From an uncultured Desulfospira sp. (GTDB lineage: Bacteria > Desulfobacterota > Desulfobacteria > Desulfobacterales > Desulfobacteraceae), in the NCBI GenBank assembly GCA_963663165.1, contig OY760175.1, positions 4,384,001 to 4,448,000 on the forward strand: DNA of 64,000 nt, written 5' to 3'. The notes under the pieces are model-generated. The model had not been told where the DNA came from. It made no database searches and saw only the letters and a list, made by a program, of their open reading frames with translations. Of the stretch, positions 19,339 to 53,201 are shown one piece after another; positions within the stretch are counted from its first letter, which is position 1; each line of letters opens with the position of its first letter. The translations under genes were made by a program, and so were the position numbers.

Positions 19339-19620
19339 GGGGTTCCTTTTGAAGGTCAATGGCAGAAGGGGGACAAAATTTAACCGGTTGCGGGGTTCAG
19401 GCTGTCTAAATCCCTCTTATCTAACTCCCTGACAATCTACCAAAAAAATATGGACAAACCAAAGAAAAAACGCATTTCTTTTGATATTCCGGGGTATGAC
19501 AGTGACGGCCTGTTGACGGCATCGGGAAGTTTTACCATTTCCAGGAACCAGGAGACCGGCCTTCCTGAAACGGTTTTTAACAACGCATTCACCATGAACC
19601 GGACCTTTAACAGCTATGGT
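19018..19620. repeat. Direct repeat copy 1 (comM 5' end, upstream region, RHS start); partner at 35557-36159
   Basis: Aligns at offset 16539; 19018-19271 diverged (roughly 87% identity by hand count), remainder nearly identical. Confidence 0.9.
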
Positions 19621-20940
19621 ACGGATGTCGGTTTGGGGTATGACAGCGACGGCCTGTTGACGGCATCGGGAAGTTTTACCATTTCCAGAAACCGGCAGAC
19701 CGGCCTTCCTGAAACGGTTTTTAACAACGCATTCACCATGAACCGGACCTTTAACAGCTATGGAGAACTTAACTCCTCTGCTGTCCTGATATCCTCAAGC
19801 CCGGTTCTGTCCATTGACCTTGCCAGGAACGACAATGGCCGGATCACCGAGAAAACCGAAGTTATACAAGGCATCAGCCATACGTTCAGTTACGAGTATG
19901 ACCCGGTGGGGCGATTGCTCGGCGTCGCCAAAGACGGGACACTGGTCGAAGAATACCAGTATGATGACAACGGCAACCGGATCTATGAGATGAACACCCT
20001 GAGGGAAATCCCGGGCCGGAGCCTGGCCTTTTCCGATGAAGACCACATCATTACCGCAGGGGACATAAGCTATGAATTTGATTATGACGACCGCCTTGCC
20101 GCAAGAACCGCCGGCAGTGAAACAACCCGATATGTGTATTCCTCTACAGGAGAGCTGCTCAGTGTAACCCTGCCTGACGGAACAACCATTTCATACATTC
20201 AGGATCCTCTCGGCAGAAGAGTGGCCAAGAAAGTCAACGGCACCATAGTCGAAAAATACCTGTGGTCCGGCCTTACAACCCTGCTTGCCGTGTATGACGG
20301 CAATGATAATTTAAAGCAGCGGTTCCTTTACGCAGACGACCGGGTGCCCTATGCCATGACCCAGGACGGAACCACCTGCTATCTGGCTTACGATCAGGTC
20401 GGATCTCTCCGGCTCGTAACCGACAGTTCCGGCACCCCTGTCAAACAGCTTGACTATGACAGCTTCGGCAATATAATAGGAGATACCCATCCAGCCTTTA
20501 CTATTCCCTTTGGTTTTGCCGGCGGCCTACACGATTCCGATACCGGCCTTGTCCGCTTTGGATACCGGGATTACATGCCGGAAATCGGCAAGTGGACGGC
20601 CAAAGACCCGATCCTGTTTGCCGGCGGGGATACTAATTTGTTTGGGTATGTCCTGAATGATCCGGTTAATTTTGTTGATCCTTTGGGGCTTTATGTGAAA
20701 CATTGGTTTGAGGACAGTTTGCCATCATGGGCACGTGATAATCGGACCCCAGAAGAGCGAGAAGAGGCTCATCAAGCTTATAATAGGGACCTTGCAAAGA
20801 GATTAGGAGAGGCAGGAGGTCTCGGGCTATTACACAAAAAAGTTGAGAGCATCATACTAATGGACCATCTTGTTGATTTTGCCGAATGGTTGTTCCACGA
20901 TGAGGACAAGGAGGAGACAAAATGCCCCATAATTGATTAG
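19450..20940 (+). CDS. Headless RHS protein 1 with variable C-terminal domain
   Basis: YD repeats and the core end GYVLNDPVNFVDPLGL followed by a unique ~80-aa tail; the first ~14 residues come from intergenic sequence. Confidence 0.85.
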   Translation: MDKPKKKRISFDIPGYDSDGLLTASGSFTISRNQETGLPETVFNNAFTMNRTFNSYGTDVGLGYDSDGLLTASGSFTISRNRQTGLPETVFNNAFTMNRTFNSYGELNSSAVLISSSPVLSIDLARNDNGRITEKTEVIQGISHTFSYEYDPVGRLLGVAKDGTLVEEYQYDDNGNRIYEMNTLREIPGRSLAFSDEDHIITAGDISYEFDYDDRLAARTAGSETTRYVYSSTGELLSVTLPDGTTISYIQDPLGRRVAKKVNGTIVEKYLWSGLTTLLAVYDGNDNLKQRFLYADDRVPYAMTQDGTTCYLAYDQVGSLRLVTDSSGTPVKQLDYDSFGNIIGDTHPAFTIPFGFAGGLHDSDTGLVRFGYRDYMPEIGKWTAKDPILFAGGDTNLFGYVLNDPVNFVDPLGLYVKHWFEDSLPSWARDNRTPEEREEAHQAYNRDLAKRLGEAGGLGLLHKKVESIILMDHLVDFAEWLFHDEDKEETKCPIID

Positions 20941-21100
20941 CGGCTTACCGCTTGTCATTGAGAGATTATCTCTCACATTTACGGAAAGCCTTTGTGGATA
21001 ACGTTAAATTTAAAATATCTTTGGCTATCATTTTTATAGCGAGATAATTATTTATGGATTTAGTTTACGGAATAGTTATTTTATTTGCGCCTGTTCTAAT

Positions 21101-24100
21101 CCCAAAACAAGCGTGTTATAAAAAATGAATTTCTCATAAGCAATTGTCGACCCGAGCTATTATTTTGTGTCTCCAATTTCCATCAAACAGACGCACGAGT
21201 CCTGATGTTTTTTGGAATACTGCCGATTGTGTTGTGGTTCATTGCTTAAATTCCCTTTTGAAATCTACAGGTTTTAGACTCGCCATTGCAGCCCGTTTGC
21301 AATAACTGTCCGGAGCAAAGGCATCATGTAACCCAGGCAGTCTTCAAAGAGTTAAAAAACTTGAACACGCTTGTGAGCCTGTTGTTATAACCAATGATTC
21401 GATATTTAATGGCCCTGCTGGAACGTATGATCAAGCAAGGGATATTTATAAATGTCTGGATAAAGCGTTTGAATTCCATACGGACGATGGAGAGACCTAA
21501 AGCTCGATACGGCATCATCATTCCATACCAGGCTTTCAGATCCCATGCCAAAGATGCAACAACCATATAGGCCCAGTTGGCATTTAGGGAATCAGAAGGA
21601 TTAGCCATTGCATGCACGCCATGTTTCAACTGATCAATGTCATTTTCGTGATCCGCCCGTTTCCGGTAAAAATCCACCAGGTGCCTGGCTGATTTTTTCC
21701 AATCGTTTGTGATGTAAAAAAAGTAACGGATATCGTCAAACAATAGACGTTCGCCTTTATACTCATTTATTGTTTTGCGCAGCACGATCATCCGGTAGGG
21801 TTGCCGACATTTACCAGGTTTATATTCAAATTCGGCTATATGTTCACAGGCGGTCTCAAGACGTTTGAAATTGCGTTTTTTGACCACTTGAAGTTTGATA
21901 TTTTCGGGACGTTTTCTGGGGATTGTTTTGATGGCTTGCGGCTGTTTTTCAAATATCTCCCATTCGGAATCTGAAAGACCACCGGCCAGTTTTATCAGGT
22001 TTGATCTGGCATCCATGCCAAAGACAAAGGTACAGCGTTGATCCCATTTGTCAAAATTGGAAGTAAGGGATGTGGTAAAATTAAAACCCACAATTCATTC
22101 CTCATAGCATGGAATATCAACAGCCCATTTTTCAATCCCTGGAATCCGAATAATTTTGTTTTCTATATTATTCACGGCGGACTTGACCAAACGTACCCCT
22201 GTCGGGTAAACACCTTTGATTAATTTGACGACAGGATTTTCTCCTTTCCATGTCATTGTTCGACATAGACCGAGAACCTTTTCAATTTTGTTCAGCAATT
22301 CGCCTTTCCAATGATTTTCCAAAACACCCCAAACTCGCTCTATTGGGTTGTATTTACTGTGGTACGGGGGATAGTACACCAAACTAATATTTACAAATGC
22401 TGATTTGGCAAAGTCCACGAGGCGACTAATGAATTGGCTCCTTCGGCTACTATTTTCCGGCCCATTATCAAGATTGATCACCAGTGTATGTGGGGCGAAT
22501 CTTGCGTTCAAAGAAGGCCAGAGTGATTCCAGCGCATCAATCATGAAATCAGAGGTGATGTTGCTTTCAGTGAAGTACATATAATTTTCATCCAGAGCAG
22601 GTATGTTGATACCGAAAAGTTTCAAAAGGGAATCGGGTTTAAAATCATGGTCCGCCGCTTTAAGATTGCAACGACTATATCCGCCTCGGGAATAAGGCCC
22701 TATTTTAATAGTGGCTTTTGCGTCCATTGAGATACGTAAAACGCCATCTGTTTCATCGGCTAGTTGGTTTGTCCTATGCACATATTCAAAAATGATGTCT
22801 GTTTCAGGAATTTTTTTTTTACCTTGGCTTTGGCGACCTTCTTCAGTTTAAAACCCAATTTATTCATTATGGTGGATAGAGTCCGTACTGTTGGCATATT
22901 CTCAGGGTCATATCCCATGTCGTCAACTAATCGACGGAATACTTCATTCGCAGATATTGGGGAATATAAATTCTGGGTACGGAATGTAGGATCAGTCTGA
23001 CATATAGGGTTTACAATACGAGTTATGTCCTCTTTTAAATTCGGAAAATGTTCTAAACACGATTTCCGGCCTCGTCCGGAAAAATTATCAACACAGGTAA
23101 CTCCGCTTTCTATTTCCCGTCGCCCTTTGATTATTGTTTTCCGATCCCAACCCAGTTCTCTTTCAGCCTTTAGTTGTCCGCCGTGCCCCATAAGGGAGAC
23201 AACGCGTGCCATGAATTGGCGCCGTTCATGGCCTTTTAATTTGCTTCGAGTGGTATTCAGAAAATCCTTTAGTGGTGGCGTTAATTCCGATATAGTTTTG
23301 GGTAAATTGTGCTTAGAATGATCAAACATGGTCCTCCTGTATTTTTTATGTAATCTTCCATGTTGACCATAAACTATCGATTCCATGTTGTCTATAGAAA
23401 TCAGAATTCAGACTATGGAATTGTGGATATTAATTTTTCTGAGGCCCTAAGGCTGAAATCAGTATCACCCCGAACGTATAATTTTTTAAAAGTGCCTTCC
23501 AGCAGATCAAGGGACTTATCCACCCAACCCGCAGAGTTGAGGTGGGACGGAGCATTGCCGGATCGATTGATTATATAAAGAGGCTCCCTTGTTTTTTCCA
23601 GAGAGACTATCAGAGGGGCATATCCCCACTTACCATTATAAGAGATGTCCATACCCTGTTTGCACTCGCCGGTTGTTTCACTGATAGTGCCGTCGATATT
23701 GATGATGGCTTCTTTCTTGAAGTTTTGCGGCTGCTTTTCCCATACCTTTTTCCGGATGGTATTTTTGACGTCCTGCAGAGTTATGATATCTTCCTTGGAA
23801 AACCGGCGCAAAAAGTCTCCGGCTGTAGTGGGATCGGGGATAATTTCTGCATCCAGAGCATTCAACCAGGCTTCATTGTTTCTGAGCAGCTCAATATCCT
23901 GAAGGCAGGTGCCACCGGCAAGAATATTATATGCCATGTTGGCGACATGATCTGATTCATGATAGGGCAAATGGCGTTTAAGCAGTTCGAGCTCCTTATC
24001 AATTTCTTTCAGAAGGCCGGTCTTTTTGGCAAGCATATGAATTAACCCTATGCCGCCGGGAGCAACCCCTTGGAGGCGACCGTCAATCTCGTATTGAATG

Positions 24101-24327
24101 TTGGATGCTTTAAACATAGGGGCTGGCTGTTCATCCCAATCTCTTTTGTTGAGCTTTTTGCTTATTTTTTTCTTGCGTTTTGCCAAATTTTTGTTGATAT
24201 TTTTATTCACTCGAAACGTCCTTTCAATTTGGTATATTTCGTTGTGGTAAACTTATTATACCTTTTATTGATAGGCGTTTCGAGGATTTTATCTCATTTT
24301 TATTACTTATCTCACGCTTGTTTTGGG
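21101..24327 (-). mobile_element. IS1380-family element copy A; transposase (24210-23448 + 22063-21324) split by a nested IS
   Basis: 15-bp terminal IR CCCAAAACAAGCGTG; motifs ESDHV, PDPTTAGDFLRRF, IDGT and RGDTDFSL|TSNFDKWD. Confidence 0.85.
22067..23447 (-). mobile_element. ISAzo13-family element nested in IS1380 copy A; transposase 23329-22095 with -1 frameshift
   Basis: 30-bp imperfect IRs GGG...AAAATTAA...CCACAATTC; TAA target duplication (22064-22066, 23448-23450); motifs ISMDAKA, LDNGPE and YYPPYHSKYNPIERVWG. Confidence 0.85.
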
Positions 24328-25220
24328 TTTAGCTGTTCAAGGTTAGACCCAAAACAAGCGTGTTATAAAAAATGAATTTCTCATAAGCAATTGTCGACCC
24401 GAGCTATTATTTTGTGTCTCCAATTTCCATCAAACAGACGCACGAGTCCTGATGTTTTTTGGAATACTGCCGATTGTGTTGTGGTTCATTGCTTAAATTC
24501 CCTTTTGAAATCTACAGGTTTTAGACTCGCCATTGCAGCCCGTTTGCAATAACTGTCCGGAGCAAAGGCATCATGTAACCCAGGCAGTCTTCAAAGAGTT
24601 AAAAAACTTGAACACGCTTGTGAGCCTGTTGTTATAACCAATGATTCGATATTTAATGGCCCTGCCGGAACGTATGATCAAGCAAGGGATATTTATAAAT
24701 GTCTGGATAAAGCGTTTGAATTCCATACGGACGATGGAAAGACCTAAAGCTCGATACGGCATCATCATTCCATACCAGGCTTTCAGATCCCATGCCAAAG
24801 ATGCAACAACCATATAGGCCCAGTTGGCATTTAGGGAATCAGAAGGATTAGCCATTGCATGCACGCCATGTTTCAACTGATCAATGTCATTTTCGTGATC
24901 CGCCCGTTTCCGGTAAAAATCCACCAGGTGCCTGGCTGATTTTTTCCAATCGTTTGTGATGTAAAAAAAGTAACGGATATCGTCAAACAATAGACGTTCG
25001 CCTTTATACTCATTTATTGTTTTGCGCAGCACGATCATCCGGTAGGGTTGCCGACATTTACCAGGTTTATATTCAAATTCGGCTATATGTTCACAGGCGG
25101 TCTCAAGACGTTTGAAATTGCGTTTTTTGACCACTTGAAGTTTGATATTTTCAGGACGTTTTCTGGGGATTGTTTTGATGGCTTGCGGCTGTTTTTCAAA
25201 TATCTCCCATTCGGAATCTG

Positions 25221-25593
25221 TGAGAGCAATCACGATATTTGATGGACACGTTTTCATGCTATTTGGTGGAACTGAGGAGAAGAAACAATAGCTTGACACA
25301 CCACCCCCCATGGGTAGATGGGAAAGTTGATAAAAATGTCTCAAACCAGCAAATTTTTACGATACCCAAGGGAGGGGTGGTACGCTCTAAGAATTTTATA
25401 TCTACCTGTAATTAAATCTAATTCAAAAAATCTATCCCTCATTTATCGTTGATTCTTTCAAGTTAACGGAAGGAGGACCGATCGGCCCTAAAGTATAGTG
25501 AAAAATGAGGAACGACAAAGGGAGTGAAAAATTTCCATAAGATAGCTTGCAAAAAATAAAGCCTCTTTCCATCAAATATCGTGATCACTCTCA
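25221..25593. mobile_element. 373-bp non-autonomous MITE
   Basis: 26-bp IRs with 2 mismatches (TGAGAGcaATCACGATATTTGATGGA); 5-bp TSD ATCTG; absent from copy A at the same site. Confidence 0.85.
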
Positions 25594-25691
25594 ATCTGAA
25601 AGACCACCGGCCAGTTTTATCAGGTTTGATCTGGCATCCATGCCAAAGACAAAGGTACAGCGTTGATCCCATTTGTCAAAATTGGAAGTAA

Positions 25692-27070
25692 GGGATGTGG
25701 TAAAATTAAAACCCACAATTCATTCCTCATAGCATGGAATATCAACAGCCCATTTTTCAATCCCTGGAATCCGAATAATTTTGTTTTCTATATTATTCAC
25801 GGCGGACTTGACCAAACGTACCCCTGTCGGGTAAACACCTTTGATTAATTTGACGACAGGATTTTCTCCTTTCCATGTCATTGTTCGACATAGACCGAGA
25901 ACCTTTTCAATTTTGTTCAGCAATTCGCCTTTCCAATGATTTTCCAAAACACCCCAAACTCGCTCTATTGGGTTGTATTTACTGTGGTACGGGGGATAGT
26001 ACACCAAACTAATATTTACAAATGCTGATTTGGCAAAGTCCACGAGGCGACTAATGAATTGGCTCCTTCGGCTACTATTTTCCGGCCCATTATCAAGATT
26101 GATCACCAGTGTATGTGGGGCGAATCTTGCGTTCAAAGAAGGCCAGAGTGATTCCAGCGCATCAATCATGAAATCAGAGGTGATGTTGCTTTCAGTGAAG
26201 TACATATAATTTTCATCCAGAGCAGGTATGTTGATACCGAAAAGTTTCAAAAGGGAATCGGGTTTAAAATCATGGTCCGCCGCTTTAAGATTGCAACGAC
26301 TATATCCGCCTCGGGAATAAGGCCCTATTTTAATAGTGGCTTTTGCGTCCATTGAGATACGTAAAACGCCATCTGTTTCATCGGCTAGTTGGTTTGTCCT
26401 ATGCACATATTCAAAAATGATGTCTGTTTCAGGAATTTTTTTTTACCTTGGCTTTGGCGACCTTCTTCAGTTTAAAACCCAATTTATTCATTATGGTGGA
26501 TAGAGTCCGTACTGTTGGCATATTCTCAGGGTCATATCCCATGTCGTCAACTAATCGACGGAATACTTCATTCGCAGATATTGGGGAATATAAATTCTGG
26601 GTACGGAATGTAGGATCAGTCTGACATATAGGGTTTACAATACGAGTTATGTCCTCTTTTAAATTCGGAAAATGTTCTAAACACGATTTCCGGCCTCGTC
26701 CGGAAAAATTATCAACACAGGTAACTCCGCTTTCTATTTCCCGTCGCCCTTTGATTATTGTTTTCCGATCCCAACCCAGTTCTCTTTCAGCCTTTAGTTG
26801 TCCGCCGTGCCCCATAAGGGAGACAACGCGTGCCATGAATTGGCGCCGTTCATGGCCTTTTAATTTGCTTCGAGTGGTATTCAGAAAATCCTTTAGTGGT
26901 GGCGTTAATTCCGATATAGTTTTGGGTAAATTGTGCTTAGAATGATCAAACATGGTCCTCCTGTATTTTTATGTAATCTTCCATGTTGACCATAAACTAT
27001 CGATTCCATGTTGTCTATAGAAATCAGAATTCAGACTATGGAATTGTGGATATTAATTTTTCTGAGGCCC
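25692..27070 (-). mobile_element. ISAzo13-family element nested in IS1380 copy B
   Basis: Same ends, same TAA TSD and same insertion point as 22067-23447; ORFs 26953-26429 and 26406-25720. Confidence 0.85.
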
Positions 27071-28414
27071 TAAGGCTGAAATCAGTATCACCCCGAACGT
27101 ATAATTTTTTAAAAGTGCCTTCCAGCAGATCAAGGGACTTATCCACCCAACCCGCAGAGTTGAGGTGGGACGGAGCATTGCCGGATCGATTGATTATATA
27201 AAGAGGCTCCCTTGTTTTTTCCAGAGAGACTATCAGAGGGGCATATCCCCACTTACCATTATAAGAGATGTCCATACCCTGTTTGCACTCGTCGGTTGTT
27301 TCACTGATAGTGCCGTCGATATTGATGATGGCTTCTTTCTTGAAGTTTTGCGGCTGCTTTTCCCATACCTTTTTCCGGATGGTATTTTTGACGTCCTGCA
27401 GAGTTATGATATCTTCCTTGGAAAACCGGCGCAAAAAGTCTCCGGCTGTAGTGGGATCGGGGATAATTTCTGCATCCAGAGCATTCAACCAGGCTTCATT
27501 GTTTCTGAGCAGCTCAATATCCTGAAGGCAGGTGCCACCGGCAAGAATATTATATGCCATGTTGGCGACATGATCTGATTCATGATAGGGCAAATGGCGT
27601 TTAAGCAGTTCGAGCTCCTTATCAATTTCTTTCAGAAGGCCGGTCTTTTTGGCAAGCATATGAATTAACCCTATGCCGCCGGAGCAACCCCTTGGAGGCG
27701 ACCGTCAATCTCGTATTGAATGTTGGATGCTTTAAACATAGGGGCTGGCTGTTCATCCCAATCTCTTTTGTTAAGCTTTTTGCTTATTTTTTTCTTGCGT
27801 TTTGCCAAATTTTTGTTGATATTTTTATTCACTCGAAACGTCCTTTCAATTTGGTATATTTCGTTGTGGTAAACTTATTATACCTTTTATTGATAGGCGT
27901 TTCGAGGATTTTATCTCATTTTTATTACTTATCTCACGCTTGTTTTGGGTCTAATTACCAATATTATAGTTTTTAATAAATTGGTTTTTAGAATCAAAAA
28001 ATGGAGACTAAATGTAGATAGTGTTGATAAAAAAGATTTTAGAATTGAAATAGCAATATATCTATTATTACTCATTTGTTTAGTGTTTTTGCTATTTTTT
28101 AGTGCTAATTTTGTGTTTTTTCCAAAAAGTCAATTAATGCCGATGCCTTTTGTGATATTAGGTAAAATTTTATGTCTTCTTTTTTTTGTACCAATAATAA
28201 TATTATTTGCAATGGGTCATGCAGGAGGAGCTGGTGCTCCTTCAGTTCAAAAAACCATCATGGACTTTTTAAATATTGAAAAAATCCCCCAAAAAAGGAT
28301 CGGGTTAAATAAGTTGCTAACTTTTTGTTTAACGGCTGTCGTTTTGATTTGGTATCTTGTTTTTTTACTCGGTCCAGAGTAGCGAGTCCGGGGCCATACG
28401 AATTCCGGACTAAA

Positions 28415-28516
28415 GAATTCCGGGGACATCCATGATAAGTATTGTCAAGAACAAGATTGAACAAGATTGGGGTCAGGTCTTGAATTATAAGAAAGTGATA
28501 TTTCAAGACCTGATCC
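28415..28516. repeat. Junction motifs AATTCCGGGGACA and GGGGTCAGGTCTTGAA...TTCAAGACCTGATCC hairpin
   Basis: Lie between the immunity 1 stop and the start of RHS2-like sequence. Confidence 0.7.
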
Positions 28517-33666: not shown

Positions 33667-34089
33667 ATGATTAAAATTCCTCTAACAGAATTAAAGCATT
33701 CAAAAACTTTTTGTGTTATTTCGATAATCGCAACTGTTATTTCTGTTGGGCTTATCACTAATTGGCTGTTAAAAGCAAGCTGGGATGCGATGGTTTATGA
33801 TGTTGGCAAAGTAGGCACAATAATCGTTTTGGGTATTTATCATCTAATTTATTCAGGTATAATTTTAGTAGGTGTTATGTGTTCACTTATTAGATTCTCA
33901 AATAGTATTCATCAGCTAAACATTTATATCTGCATAACATCATCGGCTTTAGTAACAATTTGTGCTAACATCCTAACCCATTTCTTCCACAATAATATCG
34001 GATGGGTTGAAATTGTCTTTGGATTGTGGATTGGTTCATGGATTGTTTGCCTACTTATTTATTTTTTTAAGGACAAGGGGCATAACTGA
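33667..34089 (+). CDS. Putative membrane immunity protein for RHS2
   Basis: AT-rich, about 4 TM segments, starts just after the toxin stop. Confidence 0.6.
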   Translation: MIKIPLTELKHSKTFCVISIIATVISVGLITNWLLKASWDAMVYDVGKVGTIIVLGIYHLIYSGIILVGVMCSLIRFSNSIHQLNIYICITSSALVTICANILTHFFHNNIGWVEIVFGLWIGSWIVCLLIYFFKDKGHN

Positions 34090-34104
34090 GGGATAATCTC
34101 GGGA

Positions 34105-34155
34105 TCGGGGGACCTTACATAATTCCAAATAATTAAGTAAGGTGTCCCCCGAATT
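34105..34155. repeat. Junction hairpin TCGGGGGACCTTAC...GTAAGGTGTCCCCCGAATT
   Basis: Sits between immunity 2 and the point where RHS3 homology starts (34156). Confidence 0.75.
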
Positions 34156-34244
34156 AGGACCCTCTCGGCAGAAGAGCGGCCAAGAAAGTCAACGGCACCA
34201 TAGTCGAAAAATACCTGTGGTCCGGCCTTACAACCCTGCTTGCC

Positions 34245-35027
34245 GTGTATGACGGCAATGATGATTTAAAGCAGCGGTTCCTTTACGCAGACGACCGGGT
34301 GCCCTATGCCATGACCCAGGACGGGACCACCTGCTATCTGGCTTACGACCAGGTCGGATCTCTCCGGCTCGTAACCGACAGTTCCGGCACCCCTGTCAAA
34401 CAGCTTGACTATGACAGCTTCGGCAATATAATAGGAGATACCCATCCAGCCTTTACTATTCCCTTTGGTTTTGCCGGCGGCCTGCAGGATTCCGATACCG
34501 GCCTTGTCCGTTTTGGATACCGGGATTACATGCCCGAAATCGGCAAGTGGACCGCCAAAGACCCGATCCTGTTTGCCGGCGGGGATACTAATTTGTTTGG
34601 GTATGTCCTGAATGATCCGGTTAATTTTGTGGATCCTGAAGGGCTTTGGTCGGAAACTCATCCTCATCAAATCCAAAAAGATCCTACCGGTGGTGGTGGA
34701 GCAGGAGCAGCCAGCACTGTAACAGGTATTGGGGCTGGTTTGGCATTAGGGCAGATGCTTTCAGATATGATGTTCGAAGACTATGAAGGTAGTAGTTGCC
34801 CCGGTTACACTTCTGACAAATTTCCTCCTGGCTTCTGGCCTGGTGATAAGGGTGCTGAAGAGTGGGGGCGAAGAAACAATATAGATAAAAATGATGCTCG
34901 GCGAAGATTCCATGATAAAAAAAAGAAGGATTTGGGTAGTGAAGCAACGGATCCATATGGTGTGAATCCAGATACAGGGGATATTGTTGATCCAAATGGA
35001 GAATATGTTGATAACTTAGGCCAATAA
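34245..35027 (+). CDS. Orphan RHS core fragment 3 with variable C-terminal toxin
   Basis: RHS homology from 34156; core end DPEGL, then a unique tail with FWPGDKGAEEWGRRN and YGVNPDTGDIVDPNGE. Confidence 0.8.
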   Translation: MYDGNDDLKQRFLYADDRVPYAMTQDGTTCYLAYDQVGSLRLVTDSSGTPVKQLDYDSFGNIIGDTHPAFTIPFGFAGGLQDSDTGLVRFGYRDYMPEIGKWTAKDPILFAGGDTNLFGYVLNDPVNFVDPEGLWSETHPHQIQKDPTGGGGAGAASTVTGIGAGLALGQMLSDMMFEDYEGSSCPGYTSDKFPPGFWPGDKGAEEWGRRNNIDKNDARRRFHDKKKKDLGSEATDPYGVNPDTGDIVDPNGEYVDNLGQ

Positions 35028-35033
35028 ATTAAA

Positions 35034-35070
35034 TAAGGTTAACACGGCTTTTTAGTCCGTGTTAACCTTA
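35034..35070. terminator. Bidirectional hairpin terminator
   Basis: TAAGGTTAACACGG / CCGTGTTAACCTTA with A/T-rich flanks, between convergent genes. Confidence 0.7.
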
Positions 35071-35075
35071 AAAAA

Positions 35076-35477
35076 TTAGACCTCATTATCAAAATAAATA
35101 TCCCAATGGATTTCTAACCCAAATTTTAAAAAAGATTTCATAGTTTCTAAATCCAAAAATAATCCTTCATTCCCTGTTGAAACCCAGTAACAAAAGACGT
35201 CCATACTACAATCATCTTTACGAAGATCAGACAATAAATTTTCTTTATCTTGTAGTAATTCAATAAGTTTGGATAAATGTTTCAGGTTTTCACATGAATC
35301 AATTTTTCCCTCAGTAGACCAACTCCAAAAATTGTATTTTTGCCTTGATCTATTATGAGATTCTTGGTCTAAAGGAATCATTTCTGTTGCAGTAATATTC
35401 AATCTTCTGCCAATAATTTCAGGTGATATCTTTTTAGAAAAAATTCTTAAAGTAGCAAAAGTTTCTTTACAACTCAT
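35076..35477 (-). CDS. DUF4279-like protein (candidate immunity protein)
   Basis: ATLRIFS...SPEIIGRRLNIT...WSWST...LEIHWDIY pattern; AT-rich. Confidence 0.6.
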   Translation of the reverse strand: MSCKETFATLRIFSKKISPEIIGRRLNITATEMIPLDQESHNRSRQKYNFWSWSTEGKIDSCENLKHLSKLIELLQDKENLLSDLRKDDCSMDVFCYWVSTGNEGLFLDLETMKSFLKFGLEIHWDIYFDNEV

Positions 35478-35478
35478 A

Positions 35479-35877
35479 TTATAACCCCTTCATTGCCAAT
35501 TTTAGTCTAAATGTCCTGTATTCTCTTAATAACTTAGGGCCTCTGACCCCATTTATCCCAGCCATAATATAGGCGGCCTGGGCATTGCCGGGGATCAGGC
35601 CCGAGGCCGTTAAAATTCCCACGGCAACAGGCGGGTCCAGTCCGGTGCCTTCCTTTTTCAAATCTGCCGGTGCCAGGTTGATGGTGACCCGGTCCATGGG
35701 AAAGGTACACCCGGAGTTCTTAACCGCTGACCTGACCCGCTCCCGGCTCTCTCTGACCGCTGCCTCGGCCAGGCCCACAATGGAAAAAACCGGCAGACCA
35801 AATGCAATACCCACCTCCACCTCCACCACAATGGCGTCAATGCCGTTCACGGCGCATGAATTAACTTTTGCGATCAT
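35479..35877 (-). pseudogene. comM: Truncated, diverged 5' copy of comM
   Basis: Matches the ComM N-terminus up to AAYIMAG; homology stops at 35557, abutting ATAAATGGGGTCAGA. Confidence 0.85.
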
Positions 35878-35988
35878 GGGGTTCCTTTTGAAGGTCAATG
35901 GCAGAAGGGGGACAAAATTTAACCGGTTGCGGGGTTCAGGCTGTCTAAATCCCTCTTATCTAACTCCCTGACAATCTACCAAAAAAAT

Positions 35989-36348
35989 ATGGACAAACCA
36001 AAGAAAAAACGCATTTCTTTTGATATTCCGGGGTATGACAGCGACGGCCTGTTGACGGCATCGGGAAGTTTTACCATTTCCAGGAACCAGGAGACCGGCC
36101 TTTCTGAAACGGTTTTTAACAACGCAGTCACCATGAACCGGACCTTTAACAGCTATGGTGAGCTTGAATCCTCTGCTGTCTTGATATCCTCAAGCCCGGT
36201 TCTGGCCATTGACCTTGCCAGGAACGACAATGGCCGGATCACCGAGAAAATCGAAGCTATACGCCCGACCCCCGGTCCCTGGTTAATTAACGCCATGACC
36301 ATAGGCAACTCAGAATTTTTACATGCGTTAGCCCTGGGGAGCATGTAA
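35989..36348 (+). pseudogene. Short RHS fragment 4
   Basis: Same start as RHS1; RHS homology lost after RITEKIEAI. Confidence 0.75.
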
Positions 36349-36402
36349 TTCGGGGGACAAAAATATTCAATTCCGGGGACATGATACAGAATTCCCATCA
36401 AC

Positions 36403-36672
36403 CTAAGGAAAATACTTATAAATCTCACCCCGATGCAGGAACCTGACAAAGCAGACGGCATCTTCTTCAATAACAAGGCCCAGGCGGTAGTCACCCATTC
36501 TGATGCGGTAGTGACTACCCTGGGCCTTTAACTTTTTAAGGTTCCGGATGCTGTGGATGTCCGGGGCCTCCTCCACTTCCCGGATGATCTGCCGGACCCG
36601 GTCGAGCAAGGGTTGGTCTGTTTTGCGTTTTTTTAAATCTCTGGCAAAGCTCTTTTTAAAATCGAGGATCAC
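36403..36672 (-). CDS. RelE/ParE-family toxin
   Basis: FKKSFARDLKK, YRIRMGDYRLG and HRGEIY. Confidence 0.85.
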   Translation of the reverse strand: MILDFKKSFARDLKKRKTDQPLLDRVRQIIREVEEAPDIHSIRNLKKLKAQGSHYRIRMGDYRLGLVIEEDAVCFVRFLHRGEIYKYFP

Positions 36673-36875
36673 GCCCGGCCTTCCAGTATGTTAAATATCT
36701 CTTTTTTTGTGGCAGTGCCGGTATTCTGTCCTTCCTGGATCGCCCGGCTCAGGGCAATGTCTTCCATGGCATCCACGATCATCTCATGAAAGATGTTCTG
36801 TTTTTCTTCGAGCATCTCGACAAGTGCTTCCTTGAAGACCTGTTTGAGTCTGGCCTCATCCATTACGGTCTGCAT
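36669..36875 (-). CDS. Putative antitoxin
   Basis: 68-aa acidic helical protein overlapping the toxin start by 4 bp. Confidence 0.7.
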   Translation of the reverse strand: MQTVMDEARLKQVFKEALVEMLEEKQNIFHEMIVDAMEDIALSRAIQEGQNTGTATKKEIFNILEGRA

Positions 36876-36894
36876 GGCGTCTCCTTACAAACAA

Positions 36895-37266
36895 TCAGGC
36901 CCGGGCCAGTTGTTCAAATTTATATTTTTTGATGAATGCATCCAGCAGGCTGGTCAGTACCTGCTGGTCTTCTTCGGGAAGTTGCTCTATTTCTTCGATA
37001 TGCTTTAGAAGCTCCCGGCTCCTGATCTTGTTGATTGCCACGTTTGCTTCATCCCGCAGCAGGTAATCCAGGCTGACGTCAAACACAGAAGCAATTTTAA
37101 CGACCATGTTGGTGGGCGGGCAGACCACTCCCCGTTCGTATTTGGATATCAACTGGACATTCACGCCCAGTTTGTTGCCGAGCTGCCCCTGGGACAAGCC
37201 CCGGCCCTGGCGCAGCTTCTTTAACTTATCAGGCAATCCGGATATAATGGCTTTATTGTTATTCAT
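36895..37266 (-). CDS. XRE-family HTH regulator
   Basis: LKKLRQGRGLSQGQLG...ISKYERG...FDVSLDYLL. Confidence 0.88.
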   Translation of the reverse strand: MNNNKAIISGLPDKLKKLRQGRGLSQGQLGNKLGVNVQLISKYERGVVCPPTNMVVKIASVFDVSLDYLLRDEANVAINKIRSRELLKHIEEIEQLPEEDQQVLTSLLDAFIKKYKFEQLARA

Positions 37267-37532
37267 AAGTTCCTCCTTGCCTGTATATTTCTATAAATAT
37301 GGGCCTGTGTGCAAACATATTTTTCCTTGACTTTAACTTTAAAGGATACCAACTAAGCATATTAAGTTATACTTTTTGTCGTGAAAAGCAAGTTTATTTT
37401 GATATCAGGGATGTTTTTAGGAAAGAAGGCCATCAACCCGCACTCGCCAAAGTCAACCGGTTGATGGCCGAAAAAAACAAATCACAAAGGGCAAGCCCGT
37501 TTGTAACCGTTTTCTTTTTCTATCATATCTCG

Positions 37533-38286
37533 AATTCGGGGGACACGAGATAAAAATATTAATAAATTAAGTTTGATTTGCAATAAGTACCAATATGGCA
37601 AGGATAGCAAGAGCAGTAGCCCCGGGATACCCCCATCACATTACGCAGAGGGGTAACCGGAGGCAGCAGACATTCTTTTTGGATGAAGATTATCAGGCCT
37701 ATATTGATCTGATGGCGCAATGGTGCGGGCATTTTAATGTAGAAATCTGGAGTTACTGCCTGATGCCCAATCATACCCATTTAATTGCGGTTCCCGCAAC
37801 ATCAGACGGGATCGCCTCGGCCATAGGCAAAGCCCATAGAAGATATGCAAGAATGGTGAATTTCCGGGAAGGCTGGCGGGGCTATTTCTGGCAGGGACGT
37901 TTCACCTCTTTCATTTTGGACGAACCACATTTGCTGGCAGCTGCCAGATATATTGAGCAAAATCCCGTCAGGGCCGGGTTGGTTAAAAAGCCGGAAGAAT
38001 ATCGGTGGAGTTCTTGCAGGGCACACTTAAATCTCGCCAAAGATCCTCTTGTGAGGGTGGAACCTTTATCGGCATATGTAGATAAGTGGGATGAATTTAT
38101 AAATCTCCCTGTTGATCATGTCCAAAGGGATGCGATGCAAAAGCATGAGAGGACCGGGCGTCCCTTGGGAGGGGATGAATTCATTATCCAGCTCGAAACC
38201 GAGACCGGTCGGATGCTGAGAAAAAAGAAGACCGGCCCGAAAGGGCCAAGATTAAAACGATAATTTTGTATCGTGTCCCCGGAATT
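37533..38286 (+). mobile_element. HUH transposase unit with inverted ends AATTCGGGGGACACGA / TCGTGTCCCCGGAATT
   Basis: 16-bp inverted repeats (1 mismatch) closely enclose the Y1 transposase gene. Confidence 0.75.
37595..38263 (+). CDS. HUH Y1 tyrosine transposase (IS200-like, REP-associated/RAYT type)
   Basis: HHITQRGN, YCLMPNHTHL (HUH), FWQGRF, RYIEQNPVRAG (catalytic Tyr) and YRWSS. Confidence 0.9.
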   Translation: MARIARAVAPGYPHHITQRGNRRQQTFFLDEDYQAYIDLMAQWCGHFNVEIWSYCLMPNHTHLIAVPATSDGIASAIGKAHRRYARMVNFREGWRGYFWQGRFTSFILDEPHLLAAARYIEQNPVRAGLVKKPEEYRWSSCRAHLNLAKDPLVRVEPLSAYVDKWDEFINLPVDHVQRDAMQKHERTGRPLGGDEFIIQLETETGRMLRKKKTGPKGPRLKR

Positions 38287-38338
38287 CGGTGTCCCCGGAA
38301 TTCGGAATTGTGCCACCGGTTTTACCGGTGGCTGATTA

Positions 38339-40009
38339 CTATTTACTGGCGTTTTCAACAAAAACTTCGATCAGGTTTGGATGGTTTGAGCCAATATTAT
38401 CCTCCAAAGTGGCCAGTAACTCGTTGGGATCCTCAACCTGGGTTGCTGCTACCCCCATGGACTCAGCCATTTTCTGAAAATTCATGACAGGACTGTCCAG
38501 CTCCATGCCGGGGTGTTTTTCATTCAGAGGATAGTCACCCAGTACAGCCTTGCGCACCAGCTTCACCTGACGATAGGTTGCATTATTGGTGATGATAAAG
38601 GTAACAGGAATATTGTATTTAGCTGCGGTCCAAAAAGATTGCATACTCCAGGCCGCGCTACCGTCACCGGAAACCACCACCACATTCTTATCAGGTGCGC
38701 CAAGCTTGGCCCCTAAAGCCATGGGAAGGCCTGAGCCGATACTCCCGCCGTTCCTGGCCCTGATGAAGGAATCGGGCGTATCAAGATCCAACACCTGCCT
38801 GAGCATCGCTGAAGACGACCAGCAGTCATCCACAATAATCGTGTCGGCAGGCAATGCCTTTTTCAGGTCGGACATGAGTCGGGAGATGGCAATAGGACAC
38901 TGGTCCTTTTCAGCCTGGACCTGCTCTTCAAGCATTGCCAGTTTCATTTTCTTCTCAGCCAGGATTGACAACCTGCGGGAGGCGGCCATTTTCTGGTAGC
39001 CATCATCCAACTGCCCTTCCATTTTCGCGAGAATGTCGGTGAGGCCGGCCTTTATATCGCACTGAATTCCACAATCCACTGGAAAATTCTTGCCTATTTC
39101 CCATGGATTTTCGTCAAACTGCATGATCTTGATGTCATTTGGTAGCGTCGGTTCCGGATTGACAAAGGCCTGGGCAAACATGGGACAACCGATACCGATC
39201 AACAGATCAACCCCTTCCAGTATTTTTCGGGCCGGAGGCGATGTCGGGTCCAGATCACCAAGGTACTGGCCATGGGTCACCGGAAAGTTCACGTCCGACA
39301 TCCAGCTCTGGAACACCTTCGCCCCGATCATTTCAGCAAACCGGACTGTTTCCTCTATGGCGTTGCATCGGCTGACACCACTTTCCACGAATATGACAGG
39401 GTTCTTGGCTTTCTTGAGTAGTTCGATGGCCAGGACAAGGGATTCTGCGTCCGGCCTTACCCCGGGGTATACCCGGGTATTATCCTTATAGGTGTAATCA
39501 AGTTCCCCATCCAATACATCGTAGGGTATGGAGACAAGTACAGGCCCGGCCGGATGCTGAATTGACATTTTAAAGGCCCGCTGCACCGTAACCGGAATGT
39601 CCTGGGCATGTATAATTTCAGTAGCCCATTTGCTAAAAAGCTTACCCATGCCAACAATGTCCCCGGTCAAGTGCGGGTCTCGCTGCAAAAGCCTGCTATG
39701 TTGTTGACCAACGGTAATCACAATGGGTACGTTTCCGGAACAGGCGTTATACAACATGGGAAGGGCCGCTGCCATTCCCGGCCCGGTATGCAGGTTCAAA
39801 AACCCCGGCTTTCCGGATGCTCGGGCATATCCCTCAGCCATACCTGCACAGACAATTTCATTCAAACCAAGTATATATTCAATGTCGTTCGCCCGCTCCA
39901 GGGCGTCCATGAAGACAATCTCCGTAGCGCCCGGAATTCCAAAAACATATTCAACACTCTCCTTGGAAAGGAGATCAATTAAAGCGTCTTTTCCTGTCGT
40001 CTTTGCCAT
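38339..40009 (-). CDS. Thiamine-diphosphate enzyme, benzoylformate-decarboxylase-like
   Basis: VFGIPGATE, NLHTGPG and the ThDP motif GDGS...NN. Confidence 0.8.
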   Translation of the reverse strand: MAKTTGKDALIDLLSKESVEYVFGIPGATEIVFMDALERANDIEYILGLNEIVCAGMAEGYARASGKPGFLNLHTGPGMAAALPMLYNACSGNVPIVITVGQQHSRLLQRDPHLTGDIVGMGKLFSKWATEIIHAQDIPVTVQRAFKMSIQHPAGPVLVSIPYDVLDGELDYTYKDNTRVYPGVRPDAESLVLAIELLKKAKNPVIFVESGVSRCNAIEETVRFAEMIGAKVFQSWMSDVNFPVTHGQYLGDLDPTSPPARKILEGVDLLIGIGCPMFAQAFVNPEPTLPNDIKIMQFDENPWEIGKNFPVDCGIQCDIKAGLTDILAKMEGQLDDGYQKMAASRRLSILAEKKMKLAMLEEQVQAEKDQCPIAISRLMSDLKKALPADTIIVDDCWSSSAMLRQVLDLDTPDSFIRARNGGSIGSGLPMALGAKLGAPDKNVVVVSGDGSAAWSMQSFWTAAKYNIPVTFIITNNATYRQVKLVRKAVLGDYPLNEKHPGMELDSPVMNFQKMAESMGVAATQVEDPNELLATLEDNIGSNHPNLIEVFVENASK

Positions 40010-40246
40010 TTTTGTCCTTTTGGGTGTTGATTATTCGCTCATCTCGAAATGATTTCCGTCACCTCGTGAAACCGTTTTTTGCGTTATTAACCCAGGTTTC
40101 ACGAGGGTCAGACTTTTGAAGATTCTGACAATAACATACAATGTTCGTCGAAAGGTGAAGTGATCATCAAACAGTAAGTTTTCATTGGTTAAAAAATTTC
40201 CCAGCCGCTTCTCCCGGGGGCATAATTTGGAGAAGCGGTTCTATCA

Positions 40247-42109
40247 CTATAAATTCAGTTCCTCTATGACTTTCTGCATACCGCCGAGTTTTTCAAGGGA
40301 CTTCCGACTGGGCTTTCCGGTCGCCTCATCCCAGCCGATTGTTTCGTAAAAATTCTTGATAAACCCTTTATGGTCCACAGTAATACCCGCGATGGGGCCA
40401 TCGGCCAGGGGAGGTTCTCCAACCGATCGTGCAGGCGGCTTGAAATCAGCCGGCAGTAACCCTTCCCGTACGTTAAAGGCCTGGCGCAGATTGAAGATTC
40501 GAAGGCCCGCGGCCTGTTCCTCTTCTTCACCGAATTTCCAGCCGGTAACCGCCTCAAGAAGGGGCCTGGGCATATTGGGGAAGCCGCAGAAGTCGTTGCC
40601 GAAAAGACATAGGCCCGCTGAGTTCATCACTTCCCTGGCGGCGGTGGCCATGACGTCCGGTGGTCCACTGCCCTTTGGGCTGTTTTTATCCTCAAGGGGG
40701 GAAGGTCCCAAGCCGATACCTCCCTTGACATGGCGGCCCGGGGTCGGGTCCACGGCATAGGTCCTGGCAAGCGCCGGTCCAAAGCGGGGATCGTGCATGG
40801 GCAGCTCAATCCCTTTTACGGCAACCAGATATTCATCACCTTTCCCGAGCTTCTTGGCTGCTGCCGCAGACCCAAGTGCCAGCAGCTTGCCGAATTCAGT
40901 ATTTTGATCGGCCATTTCCCGGGTGGCCTGGACAAGTGCTTCCCCGTTTCCCCAGGTCAACTCCAGACCGCCGGTTTCCTCTTTGGACAGGAGCCCGTTT
41001 TCGTAGCATTCGATGGCCCAGGCAAGTGTACCTCCCGCCGAGATGGTGTCCAGACCGTCGAGATTACAGATATGGTTGCATTTGATCAAAGCCTCAACAT
41101 CTTTGTTCATAACCAGCGGACCAAAGCTGATGGATGTTTCGTATTCAGGCCTGCCGGTTTCGCCCACAGGCCATTTGCCCTCTTCAACTTTATAGACGGC
41201 ACCGCATCCCATGGGACAGCTGGCACAGGCAAATTTTTTGGTCCGGTACTTGGCATCCATGGCTTCACCCTCAAAGGGGGAAACATCCTCTTCTTTGAAA
41301 TCAGCGTTCACGGCACCCGCCCAGTTTTTCACCGGAGCATCGCCACACATCATGGACCCGCTGGTCATGAGGGTGGTGCCCAATGCAGAAAAGCCCCCTA
41401 CCATCTGCGCCATGGGGCCTTCTTTCATGGTCTTCATGATATCCTGATTAACCGCCTTAAGACGATCCCTATCGGCCACGGGTATGGAACCCTTTCCTCT
41501 CACAACGACGGCCTTCAGGTTCTTGGACCCCATGACCGCCCCGCATCCCCCCCGTCCGGCTGCACGATGCCCGTCATTCATAACGGCGGAAATGAGCGAT
41601 AATTTTTCACCTGCCTGGCCGATGGTCGCCAGGCGAAGCTTCTTGTCCCCGAGCTCTTCCTTAAGGGTTTTCTCGGTATCTACAACATCCTTGCCCCACA
41701 GATGACCGGCGTCCTTGATTTCCACAGCACCGTCATTAATCCAAAGGTACACAGGCTTTGAGGAACTTCCAGAGACAAAAACCGCATCAAATCCAGCTTT
41801 CTTCAATTCTGCTCCGAAATAGCCTCCGGAATTGGCATCATTCCATCCTCCGGTAACCGGGGACTTGCAGACAATTGTATATCGCCCGCCAAACAAGGCT
41901 CCTGTGGCGGTCAGAGGTCCCGTTGTAAAGCCGATGATATTTTCAGGCCCCAGGGCGTCAACGCCCGGTTTCATCATATCAAACAGCACTTTCGCACCAA
42001 TGCCGTAGCCACCGATAAATTTTTCGGCAGTTTCCTGTGGCAAGTCACGCTCCTGACACTCACCACTGGTCAAATCGACAAAGAGCATTTTCCCACAGTA
42101 CCCGTTCAT
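40247..42109 (-). CDS. Aldehyde:ferredoxin oxidoreductase (W/Mo AOR family)
   Basis: KSPVTG, AAGRGGCGAVMGSKNLKA, CASCPMGC, PEYET, DGLDTIS and HDPR; start refined to ATG 42109. Confidence 0.92.
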   Translation of the reverse strand: MNGYCGKMLFVDLTSGECQERDLPQETAEKFIGGYGIGAKVLFDMMKPGVDALGPENIIGFTTGPLTATGALFGGRYTIVCKSPVTGGWNDANSGGYFGAELKKAGFDAVFVSGSSSKPVYLWINDGAVEIKDAGHLWGKDVVDTEKTLKEELGDKKLRLATIGQAGEKLSLISAVMNDGHRAAGRGGCGAVMGSKNLKAVVVRGKGSIPVADRDRLKAVNQDIMKTMKEGPMAQMVGGFSALGTTLMTSGSMMCGDAPVKNWAGAVNADFKEEDVSPFEGEAMDAKYRTKKFACASCPMGCGAVYKVEEGKWPVGETGRPEYETSISFGPLVMNKDVEALIKCNHICNLDGLDTISAGGTLAWAIECYENGLLSKEETGGLELTWGNGEALVQATREMADQNTEFGKLLALGSAAAAKKLGKGDEYLVAVKGIELPMHDPRFGPALARTYAVDPTPGRHVKGGIGLGPSPLEDKNSPKGSGPPDVMATAAREVMNSAGLCLFGNDFCGFPNMPRPLLEAVTGWKFGEEEEQAAGLRIFNLRQAFNVREGLLPADFKPPARSVGEPPLADGPIAGITVDHKGFIKNFYETIGWDEATGKPSRKSLEKLGGMQKVIEELNL

Positions 42110-42269
42110 GTGTTCTTCCCCCGTATTCATTGAATTACTTAAATGACAAAATCTCGCTTCAATTTTGTCGGTTCCTTCGACTCAATCATATTTTTTTTTT
42201 ACACAAAGATAAAGTCGGTTTTTTACCTGGACTTCAATACAATAGTGTATTTTAGAATTCCGAATTCCG

Positions 42270-42641
42270 AATTCCGGGGACACGAAACAAAAATATTGAT
42301 AAGTTGAGTTTGATTTGCAATAAGTACCAATATGGCAAGGATAGCAAGAGCAGTAGCCCCGGGATACCCCCATCACATTACGCAAAGGGGTAACCGCAGG
42401 CAGCAGACATTCTTTTTGGATGAAGATTATCAGGCCTATATTGATCTGATGGCGCAATGGTGCGGGCATTTTAATGTAGAAATCTGGAGTTACTGCCTGA
42501 TGCCCAATCATACCCATTTAATTGCGGTTCCCGCAACATTATCCAGCTCGAAACCGAGACCGGTCGGATGCTGAGAAAAAAGAAGACCGGCCCGAAAGGG
42601 CCAAGATTAAAACGATAATTTTGTATCGTGTCCCCGGAATT
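42270..42641 (+). mobile_element. Internally deleted copy of the HUH transposase unit
   Basis: Same ends and near-identical sequence to 37533-38286, lacking 382 bp between two CAT trinucleotides. Confidence 0.85.
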
Positions 42642-42877
42642 AAGAAAAAACGCATTTCTTTTGCCATAAGCCGGGAATTCGGCTATATATAGCTGGATAT
42701 TCAAAATATAAACCGTCACCAAAGGATCCTTGGCAGGATATTGCCATGGCAACGGCTGAAGGCTGCCGCTATCCTCCTTTAGCCATCAACTTTCATATTG
42801 TTACAGACGCCTGACCGCTATCAGCAAAAAGCTAACAGCTAACGGCTGATAGCTAACAGCTTATAAATATAAACAAC

Positions 42878-52907: not shown

Positions 52908-52910
52908 TTT

Positions 52911-53188
52911 TATAACCGTCATGGACGGCTTGGATTATCCAGCCAGGAAGCGTCCACAACAAATAATGAAAGTCATCTCAGGATGTTGGTGAGACTTTCA
53001 TATAAACGGCCACGGGCCGTCTTGGTTATCTAACCAGGAACCGCCCACAACAGATAATGAAAGTCATCTCAGGATGTTGGTGAGACTTTCATATAAACCG
53101 TCACGGACGGCTTGGATTATCCAACCAAGCACCGTCCACAACGAAAAATGAAAGTCTTTTCGGCTTGTTAATGAGACTTTCATATAAA
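52911..53188. repeat. Three tandem ~91-bp double-hairpin repeats
   Basis: Units start at 52911, 53001 and 53092; each has a GGAC/GTCC-type stem and an ATGAAAGTC...GACTTTCAT stem. Confidence 0.85.
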
Positions 53189-53201
53189 ATTTGAGGGAAT
53201 C

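Follow-up and report, generated by a model that had tools for sequence, protein, structure and literature searches.

In integrons, accessory modules are carried in an array and are separated by a short repeated site. One-ended rolling-circle transposition is known from the IS91/ISCR elements, whose HUH enzyme attaches a defined end of the element to arbitrary DNA, mobilising adjacent sequence without a target duplication. In the established HUH chemistry, cleavage by a Y1 enzyme gives a free 3'-OH, and the 5' end stays attached to the tyrosine. The TIRtron or TIRYT elements were named in 2013 by Di Nocera, De Gregorio and Rocco, with a GGGGWSAS consensus of the terminal inverted repeat (TIR) and with dimer and cluster families (PMC3733652). 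In the available part of Quentin et al. 2018 (10.1101/279083), the TIRYTs are tentatively equated with TnpA-Y1 subclass 2.1 and are probably in the second-largest Y1 HUH subclass. For TnpA-REP, a model of nick, extension and attack on Tyr-5'P has been published (PMC3333891, legend of Figure 7B). The present study describes a 23-kb island between comM and lpxC of an uncultured Desulfospira sp., which carries a TIRtron with its Y1/HUH gene and several pieces of RHS genes. The island lies in a 64-kb stretch of contig OY760175.1 (the window, to which positions without a prefix refer) in a 6.74-Mb genome, G000. A genome of the same genus, G001, was used for comparison. Most of the traceable joints of the island lie at the outer tips of TIRs, and we think it somewhat probable, judging from the pattern of the joints, that the Y1/HUH enzyme of the TIRtron makes them.

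The exact 13-mer AATTCSGGGGACA occurs nine times in the window (28416+, 34143-, 36347+, 36369+, 37533+, 38274-, 38290-, 42270+ and 42629-), and zero exact or one-mismatch copies were found in the rest of the window outside 28.4-42.7 kb. Markov models predict 0.9-1.5 exact copies for the genome, which contains 33. Therefore, the motif is real and recurrent, as a preliminary description of this DNA had claimed. It is the TIR of a 754-bp TIRtron on the plus strand (37533-38286), in which the Y1/HUH gene lies between GGGGACAC repeats at 37533+ and 38274-, and the 29-nt arms are 86% complementary. The open reading frame (ORF) at 37595-38263 encodes 222 aa with H60-T-H62 and Y119xxxNP, and it matches Pfam Y1_Tnp with an E-value of 2.7e-12. 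The protein has a C-terminal extension of about 100 aa with zero Pfam HTH matches. The same motif forms the inverted ends of an internally deleted copy at 42270-42641, which had also been noticed before. The TIRs are dispersed in the genome as singles, dimers and clusters, and the doublets measure about 55-67 bp. In a survey of 57 loci of Y1 homologues, many full-length homologues of Planctomycetota, Alpha- and Gammaproteobacteria and further groups were found to have the same TIR, as a rule with one copy 53-61 nt upstream of the start codon and another behind the stop. The other Y1 genes of G000 have their own GGGGTC- TIR families. By these sequence features the element is a TIRtron/TIRYT, and its Y1 protein may belong to TnpA-Y1 subclass 2.1. 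Six TIR families were counted genome-wide, and three of them mark joints in the island. The motif does stand at module junctions and island borders as had been described, but the idea of one single motif has to be given up.

Other identities of the element were rejected. The preliminary description had taken the motif for a REP hairpin, and this has been replaced by a GGGGWSAS TIR of the TIRtron/TIRYT kind. Against a REP/REPIN identity, no GT[AG]G-tagged hairpin was seen in the flanks by eye (no systematic scan was made), a single TIR folds weakly, and the Y1 protein scores 70.7 on NF047646, under the cut-off of 80. The protein weakly matches the E. coli TnpA-REP structure 4ER8 (E 0.004). Membership of IS200/IS605, whose members have a Y---Q motif, a short TnpA that consists of the core only, subterminal hairpins and no inverted ends, was ruled out by the Y---NP motif, the length of 222 aa and the inverted ends. 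For IS91/ISCR, Y1_Tnp is the sole match and the TIRs are symmetric. A classical insertion sequence (IS) or composite transposon with a fixed target duplication was rejected on a 22-bp overlap in G000, an overlap of about 80 bp in G001 and a 77-bp loss at a family-4 site. As for an integron, a Pfam scan of 37 selected ORFs from 13.7-48.5 kb of the window gave no match to a tyrosine-recombinase integrase. Integron cassettes with a fixed crossover were excluded by entry in mid-gene at aa 1487, 1786 and 1975, by offsets of 0-7 nt and by the three TIR families.

Seven joints in the island are traceable, and at five of them the distance to the outer tip of a TIR is 0-2 nt: 19483 (2 nt), 34156 (0), 35558 (2-nt overlap), 37531 (1) and 42642 (0). 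The two traceable joints without a TIR are the 144-bp duplication in RHS1 (19619/19635) and the right end of RHS4 (36262). The partner DNA is untraceable at the start of RHS2, which lies behind a family-2 doublet, and at the cargo, which lies between outer tips. Altogether, about ten joints of the island have TIR ends. An assembly artefact was ruled out for the covered joints, because short-read contigs cross several of them with 0-1 differences. Contigs from X1, possibly the source sample, cover 38257-42336, 34601-35840 and 42612-43200, and a contig from X3, a separate study, covers 37867-42299, all with zero differences. A contig over 19272-19520 crosses the left TIR remnant with one difference, and a contig joint leads from 36000 to 42642 with 22 letters in common. 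No single contig piece spans the whole island. In run X3, G000-type contigs (depth about 8-9) were found alongside G001-type contigs (high depth). Since both contig types are present in one run, the two lineages can co-occur.

Many TIRs carry stutters, which are truncated copies of the tip just outside the TIR core. TIR cores were collected from G000, G001 and homologous Y1 loci, and 87 of the 210 have such a partial copy, against 83 of 6041 controls (1.4%). The stutter starts 2-7 nt before TTCC in 80 of the 87, and its inner end lies anywhere 4-59 nt inside. An unanchored scan showed that tandem junctions peak at -7 to -2. Perfect stutter units have 0-1 nt of microhomology in 28 of 44 cases. 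Alternatively, the TIR doublets or protein-bound TIRs could be fragile sites, through hairpins or fork blocks, at which host repair and polymerase slippage instead of the Y1 enzyme create the joints and stutters. The doublets do fold (-13.5 and -15.4 kcal/mol), and the GGGG fusion at 19486 and an excess of 3-4 nt microhomologies also agree with fragile sites. However, the single TIR folds weakly (-4.6 kcal/mol) and is still stuttered and junction-bound, the junctions cluster 2-7 nt beyond the tip and are confined to its outer side, and most stutter junctions have 0-1 nt of microhomology. Fragile sites are therefore quite unlikely in our judgement.

For the Y1/HUH enzyme as the maker of the joints, the following mechanism can be proposed. 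The enzyme would nick the AATTCC strand 2-7 nt 5' of TTCC and would hold a 5'-phosphotyrosine on the TIR side. Extension of the freed host 3'-OH by a few bases, followed by resealing, would leave a stutter copy with a fixed start, much as in the amplification model for TnpA-REP (PMC3333891). The use of another 3'-OH would result in a deletion, a duplication, an inversion, or a fusion to distant or incoming DNA. One-sided fusions, deletions, inversions and overlaps of variable length are indeed what the joints show. The enzyme would thus join one end at a time, to any nearby free 3'-OH. At the comM-lpxC hotspot, the ends of at least three TIRYT families, together with homologous recombination and ordinary IS, would have assembled the orphan RHS tips, the putative immunity genes and the cargo into an array. 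That the protein encoded at 37595-38263 cuts and captures DNA is what we infer from the sequence pattern. The system is probably a one-ended HUH joiner, and the array would be its by-product and not the work of a programmed cassette system.

Breakpoints at the tips were compared between G001 and G000. G001 has 44 motif matches, 36 of which fall within the 18 regions tested, and the remaining 8, at the RHS/lpxC site, were handled separately. In an oriented test, 7 of 29 tips have the end of the DNA common to both genomes 3-7 nt away on their outer side; for random non-coding points the proportion is 2.8-3.3% (p 3.5e-5). When the count is restricted to unshared tips with homologous flanks, the figure is 7 of 11 against 10-14% (p 2e-4). 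The outer side gave 6 of 36 and the inner side 0 of 36, the latter being a rough control because the inner boundary varies, and a decoy motif gave 6 of 556. TIR outer tips thus coincide with rearrangement junctions more often than expected by chance in this oriented test (7 of 29 tips against 3%), in agreement with the preliminary description. Neither a clean empty site with contiguous flanks nor a fixed target duplication is among the G001/G000 junctions that were listed.

The joints could also be insertion scars. They would then result from two-ended transposition of TIRtrons or doublets into a tolerant hotspot, with target loss or duplication and with homologous recombination added, and without distant capture. 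A family-4 TIRtron found only in G000 has replaced about 77 bp of its target with zero duplication, which agrees with this explanation. The doublets are polymorphic between G000 and G001, the RHS cores have 250-826 bp in common at 97-99%, and the comM copy is a mosaic, all of which also speak for scars. On the other hand, the truncated tip copies with a fixed start are left unexplained. Single tips without a partner arm stand at the breakpoints L117, L118 and L121, and the ParE module was copied from 2.6 Mb away and ends 1 nt from a tip. Insertion scars as the whole explanation seem rather unlikely to us. Two of the regions in G001 have further features. At L117 (G001:C1 about 1296600), a TIR stack and an RHS-like gene start of about 185 bp stand in place of 40 kb of other G000 DNA. 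At L120 (G001:C1 about 2381700), a TIR stack directly follows 236 bp of host DNA, a second copy of which lies 6.6 kb downstream; this layout resembles the comM duplication.

Several results weigh against the Y1/HUH enzyme as the maker of the joints. In an unoriented test, 6 of 24 clusters had an alignment edge no farther than 25 bp away, compared with 12% of non-coding controls, which is weak (p 0.06); the repeat filter of this test removed one real block (L119). In the oriented test, 22 of the 29 tips have no breakpoint match, of which 14 lacked flank homology and 4 are inside shared blocks. The breakpoint comparison comprises one genome pair, related tips are non-independent, and polymorphic inserts lie at alignment edges by definition. 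A loose pattern for the GGGGTCA families gave only 1 of 43. The inversion joint in G001 lies 14-17 nt from a tip and is outside the range of 3-7 nt. Microhomologies of 3-4 nt exceed the expectation (10 seen, 2-3 expected), and this excess together with the GGGG fusion at 19486 indicates that host slippage or deletion also acts. No sign of current activity was seen, as the stutters that flank the cargo are identical in the contigs of two studies and no alternative G000-type joint is listed.

The comM and lpxC genes adjoin, about 100-250 bp apart, in six of seven relatives (G002, G004, G007, G012, G014 and G015), and the seventh, G001, has a different array and a rearrangement at this site. In G000, the left border of the island is a 22-bp host sequence from the comM/lpxC intergenic region (19462-19483, plus strand), which is repeated at 36001-36022 and 42642-42663 and gives the island its 22-bp host overlap. 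A hipA-like toxin gene lies beside comM (16454-17713). The border sequence is followed by a family-1 TIR remnant, ATTCCGGGG (19486-19494, plus), 2 nt from the host end, and its inner side is joined to RHS sequence via GGGG. The fusion of ATTCCGGGG through GGGG at 19486 and again at 36025 was seen exactly as described before, and the native context of the RHS sequence fused there is GTTTGGGG-TATGAC. RHS1 (19491-20940, plus) consists of a 5'-truncated core from about aa 1786 and a variable tip, and its 144-bp internal duplication has no TIR. Nested multicopy DDE IS (21088-27953, minus) lie between the RHS1 tip and putative immunity gene 1 (27945-28382, plus). They are missing from this spot in G001 and are outside the TIR system. 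Two tandem IS1380-like copies make up this block; both are interrupted by an ISAzo13-family element at the identical position, and the second copy additionally holds a 373-bp multicopy insert (25221-25593). The block separates the RHS1 tip from its putative immunity gene. The next joint has a family-1 TIR with one truncated outer copy (28400-28449, plus), where different stacks are found in G001, and a family-2 TIR doublet GGGGTCAGGTCTTG...CAAGACCTGA with its own stutter (28450-28516, plus), directly before the mid-gene start of RHS2. This second TIR family is a GGGGTCAGG doublet, at about 28469-28516. RHS2 (28517-33659, plus) is 5'-truncated from about aa 1487 and is split by a 2.8-kb multicopy IS at 30234-33010. 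The first ORF of this IS matches Druantia DruA (PF14236), the second is DDE-associated, and about 10 near-identical copies are in the genome. Putative immunity gene 2 follows at 33589-34089 (plus). The two immunity genes named in the preliminary description are present, but the label comes from position only, as both gave zero Pfam or NCBIfam matches.

A family-1 TIR doublet (34105-34155), the one whose hairpin folds at -15.4 kcal/mol, precedes RHS3, and the RHS3 homology starts from the next base. RHS3 (34156-35027, plus) has a truncated core from aa 1975 and a tip, and it is followed by a DUF4279 gene (35076-35477, minus). A family-3 TIR end, GGATAAATGGGGTCAGAG (35541-35558, minus), truncates a comM copy, which stops at the outer tip; this TIR end is identical to copies at another RHS locus of G000. 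The family-2 doublet before RHS2, this family-3 end and the tip stutters are features beyond the preliminary description. The copy is a duplicate of 19018-19620 at 35557-36159 and contains the comM 5' part, the promoter, the TIR remnant (36025-36033) and an RHS start. It is a mosaic (19018-19483 compared with 35557-36022), in which the distal part has diverged and the promoter-near part is identical, and it has some letters in common with the comM of G001. This suggests inter-strain recombination at the comM locus. RHS4 (36030-36262, plus) is an internal fragment of aa 1786-1865, and its right end has no family-1 TIR; a GGGGTCGG look-alike abuts it at 36263-36272. When the four 5'-truncated RHS pieces were aligned to a 2237-aa relative from G286, their starts fell at about aa 1786, 1487, 1975 and 1786. 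The earlier observation that RHS homology begins in mid-gene is thus right. Small non-coding repeats at 36314-36337 and 42811-42875 have copies elsewhere in the genome.

The right part of the island begins with a stack of two family-1 TIR starts (36347-36398, plus). A ParE/RelE toxin and XRE-HTH module (36399-37531, minus) comes next and is a 94% copy of G000:1802657-1803789, 2.6 Mb away; it stops 1 nt before the left tip of the TIRtron. At that other RHS locus (G000:C1:1802626), a copy of an RHS gene start is cut short by a family-2 tip, behind which the source ParE/HTH module lies. Behind the TIRtron are stuttered partial copies of its right TIR tip (38287-38309, minus). The cargo (38310-42255, minus), an intact thiamine pyrophosphate (TPP)-dependent enzyme and an aldehyde:ferredoxin oxidoreductase (AFOR), lies between two TIR outer tips. 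No donor was found in G001, G002, G022 and G005, and G004 gave only a 66-bp match; partial matches of 66-70% are in 2 of 200 genomes of the order. Capture of the cargo is therefore untraceable. The internally deleted TIRtron with a GAATTCC stutter (42255-42641, plus; TIR to TIR 42270-42641) closes the island, and the host resumes at 42642 with zero bases between. Homologous recombination between RHS cores and comM copies, the GGGG microhomology deletion at 19486 and the DDE insertions explain the remaining island. Farther to the right, the window has a tandem repeat of about 91 bp (52908-53191), dispersed copies of which are in G001.

The same site in G001 is built differently. The comM promoter is fused to a different RHS position via a family-2 doublet, and the units of RHS, tip and immunity gene are repeated in tandem. 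The TIR stack that precedes RHS2 in G000 differs from those of both G001 units. Two different RHS positions of G001 are each fused to a family-2 tip that has the same leader, CCCCGAAAGCG, and family-2 and family-1 outer tips enclose an RHS piece of 210 bp. A full TIRtron stands before lpxC with a promoter overlap of about 80 bp. The comM gene is inverted away from lpxC, and the breakpoint is 14-17 nt from the left tip of this TIRtron. Because the array of G001 differs from that of G000 in content and order, the module order is variable and not invariant, which supports the preliminary description on this point. At its far end, the RHS array of G001 closes with a TIR stack, and behind it lies a 14-kb TRAP-transporter-like block (G001:C1 about 1199900-1213400; labels by eye from translations) that is absent from G000. 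As to reading frames in G000, RHS1 is in frame with an ATG at 19450 in the comM promoter region, and RHS2 with one at 28432 that lies within TIR-derived sequence. At the equivalent joints in G001, a stop just upstream closes the RHS frame in two of three.

The link between TIRs and RHS loci was also examined. In G000, 21 of 75 TIR clusters (six families) are within 15 kb of RHS genes, a zone that makes up 5% of the genome. The clusters are clumped, with one or more at 5 of 10 RHS loci against 2.3 expected, and 54 of the 75 are elsewhere. Among 8 related RHS loci from other genomes of the family, 4 have family-1-type TIRs, and two of these are close kin. RHS matches lie near 8 of the 57 Y1 loci, those of G001 included, against 14 of 337 G000 windows, a control with a different taxon mix. 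In a sphingomonad locus (L082), an RHS-like frame begins at a stuttered tip. A regular-expression detection of RHS gave 0 of 54 loci and 2 sites in G000 and was discarded as too insensitive. Overall, the TIR-RHS link is suggestive, and it is neither exclusive nor proven to be selected. A dense family-3 TIR cluster surrounds another RHS locus (G000:C1:3241845-3259260).

This link bears on the possibility that the island is a cassette system that has been domesticated and works without an integrase, the purpose of the transposase being to gather toxin tips, toxin-antitoxin modules and enzymes into an array. The roughly ten joints with TIR ends, the 21 of 75 clusters near RHS genes, the family-1-type TIRs at half of the eight related RHS loci and the RHS matches near 8 of 57 Y1 loci could be read in its favour. 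However, the clumping and the 54 clusters elsewhere reduce the first of the genome-wide figures, and the inclusion of G001 loci and the different control taxa reduce the last. Moreover, the pieces are cut in mid-gene, and neither G000 nor G001 yielded a parent RHS gene of full length. The reading frames at the G000 junctions are lost at two G001 joints, and the island contains both a duplicate of host comM DNA and a mixture of three TIR families. A purposeful cassette system is very unlikely. The integron-like array of the preliminary description is likewise not upheld in view of the mid-gene cuts, the duplicated comM, the overlap of 22 bp here and about 80 bp in G001, and the missing parent gene in both genomes.

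A broader proposal starts from the one-ended joiner. TIRYT enzymes in general might be homology-independent single-end joiners that attach their TIR tips to any 3'-OH, that of incoming or distant DNA included, and, in sulfate reducers and other phyla, a recurrent and selected route by which RHS tips, immunity genes and cargo are truncated, shuffled and collected. We put this forward as a tentative possibility, on balance unlikely. If true, single-end joiners would be a previously unrecognised recombination engine for polymorphic-toxin arrays. The locus and its relative in G001 give a testable prediction for the proposed mechanism, which comprises the strand, a nick 2-7 nt outside TTCC, fixed-start stutters, one-sided fusions and no fixed target duplication. 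If this prediction is right, TIRYTs would be a widespread source of homology-independent rearrangement that helps to explain the arbitrary entry points of orphan RHS modules.

In comparison with known systems, the island resembles an integron in being an array of modules with a short repeated site. It is unlike an integron in that it has no integrase among the scanned ORFs, no intact one-gene cassettes, variable crossovers and several site families. IS91/ISCR elements have a Y2 enzyme and ori/ter ends, whereas a Y1 enzyme, symmetric inverted ends and joints on the outer side of the tip are found here. The closest match is the TIRtron/TIRYT (PMC3733652), with the same Y1/HUH gene between GGGGWSAS inverted repeats, the same single, dimer and clustered TIRs and the same Y---NP motif. 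It differs in that tip stutters, tip breakpoints and RHS arrays are unmentioned, and no TIRYT experiment is reported, in the available parts of PMC3733652 and 10.1101/279083. The subclass 2.1 examples in the accessible description have DnaA-C/HTH, whereas the 222-aa protein has no such Pfam match. In the open literature, no link of TIRYT tips to breakpoints, stutters or RHS arrays was found (subscription papers were outside the search, and figure 9 or the supplements of PMC3733652 may show stutters), and no publication that describes a substrate, a cut site or a product of a TIRYT was found. The REPtron/TnpA-REP (RAYT) system of E. coli (Ton-Hoang et al. 2012, PMC3333891) has a related HUH/Y1 enzyme and a proposed amplification of repeats by nicking, extension and rejoining. 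According to the accessible part of that paper, TnpA-REP carries out cleavage and strand transfer in vitro and cuts at CT sites, which may be as far off as hundreds of nt, whereas the predicted cut of the TIRtron enzyme is position-fixed near the tip. Finally, the orphan arrays of RHS C-terminal and immunity genes (Zhang et al. 2012, PMC3482391) have been considered. In the first 300,000 characters of that paper, HUH and RAYT occur zero times and 'transposase' occurs once in an unrelated place. Those arrays have truncated cores, different tips, a small gene after each and core recombination, as the present island does, and the difference is that the entry points here are set by TIR tips.

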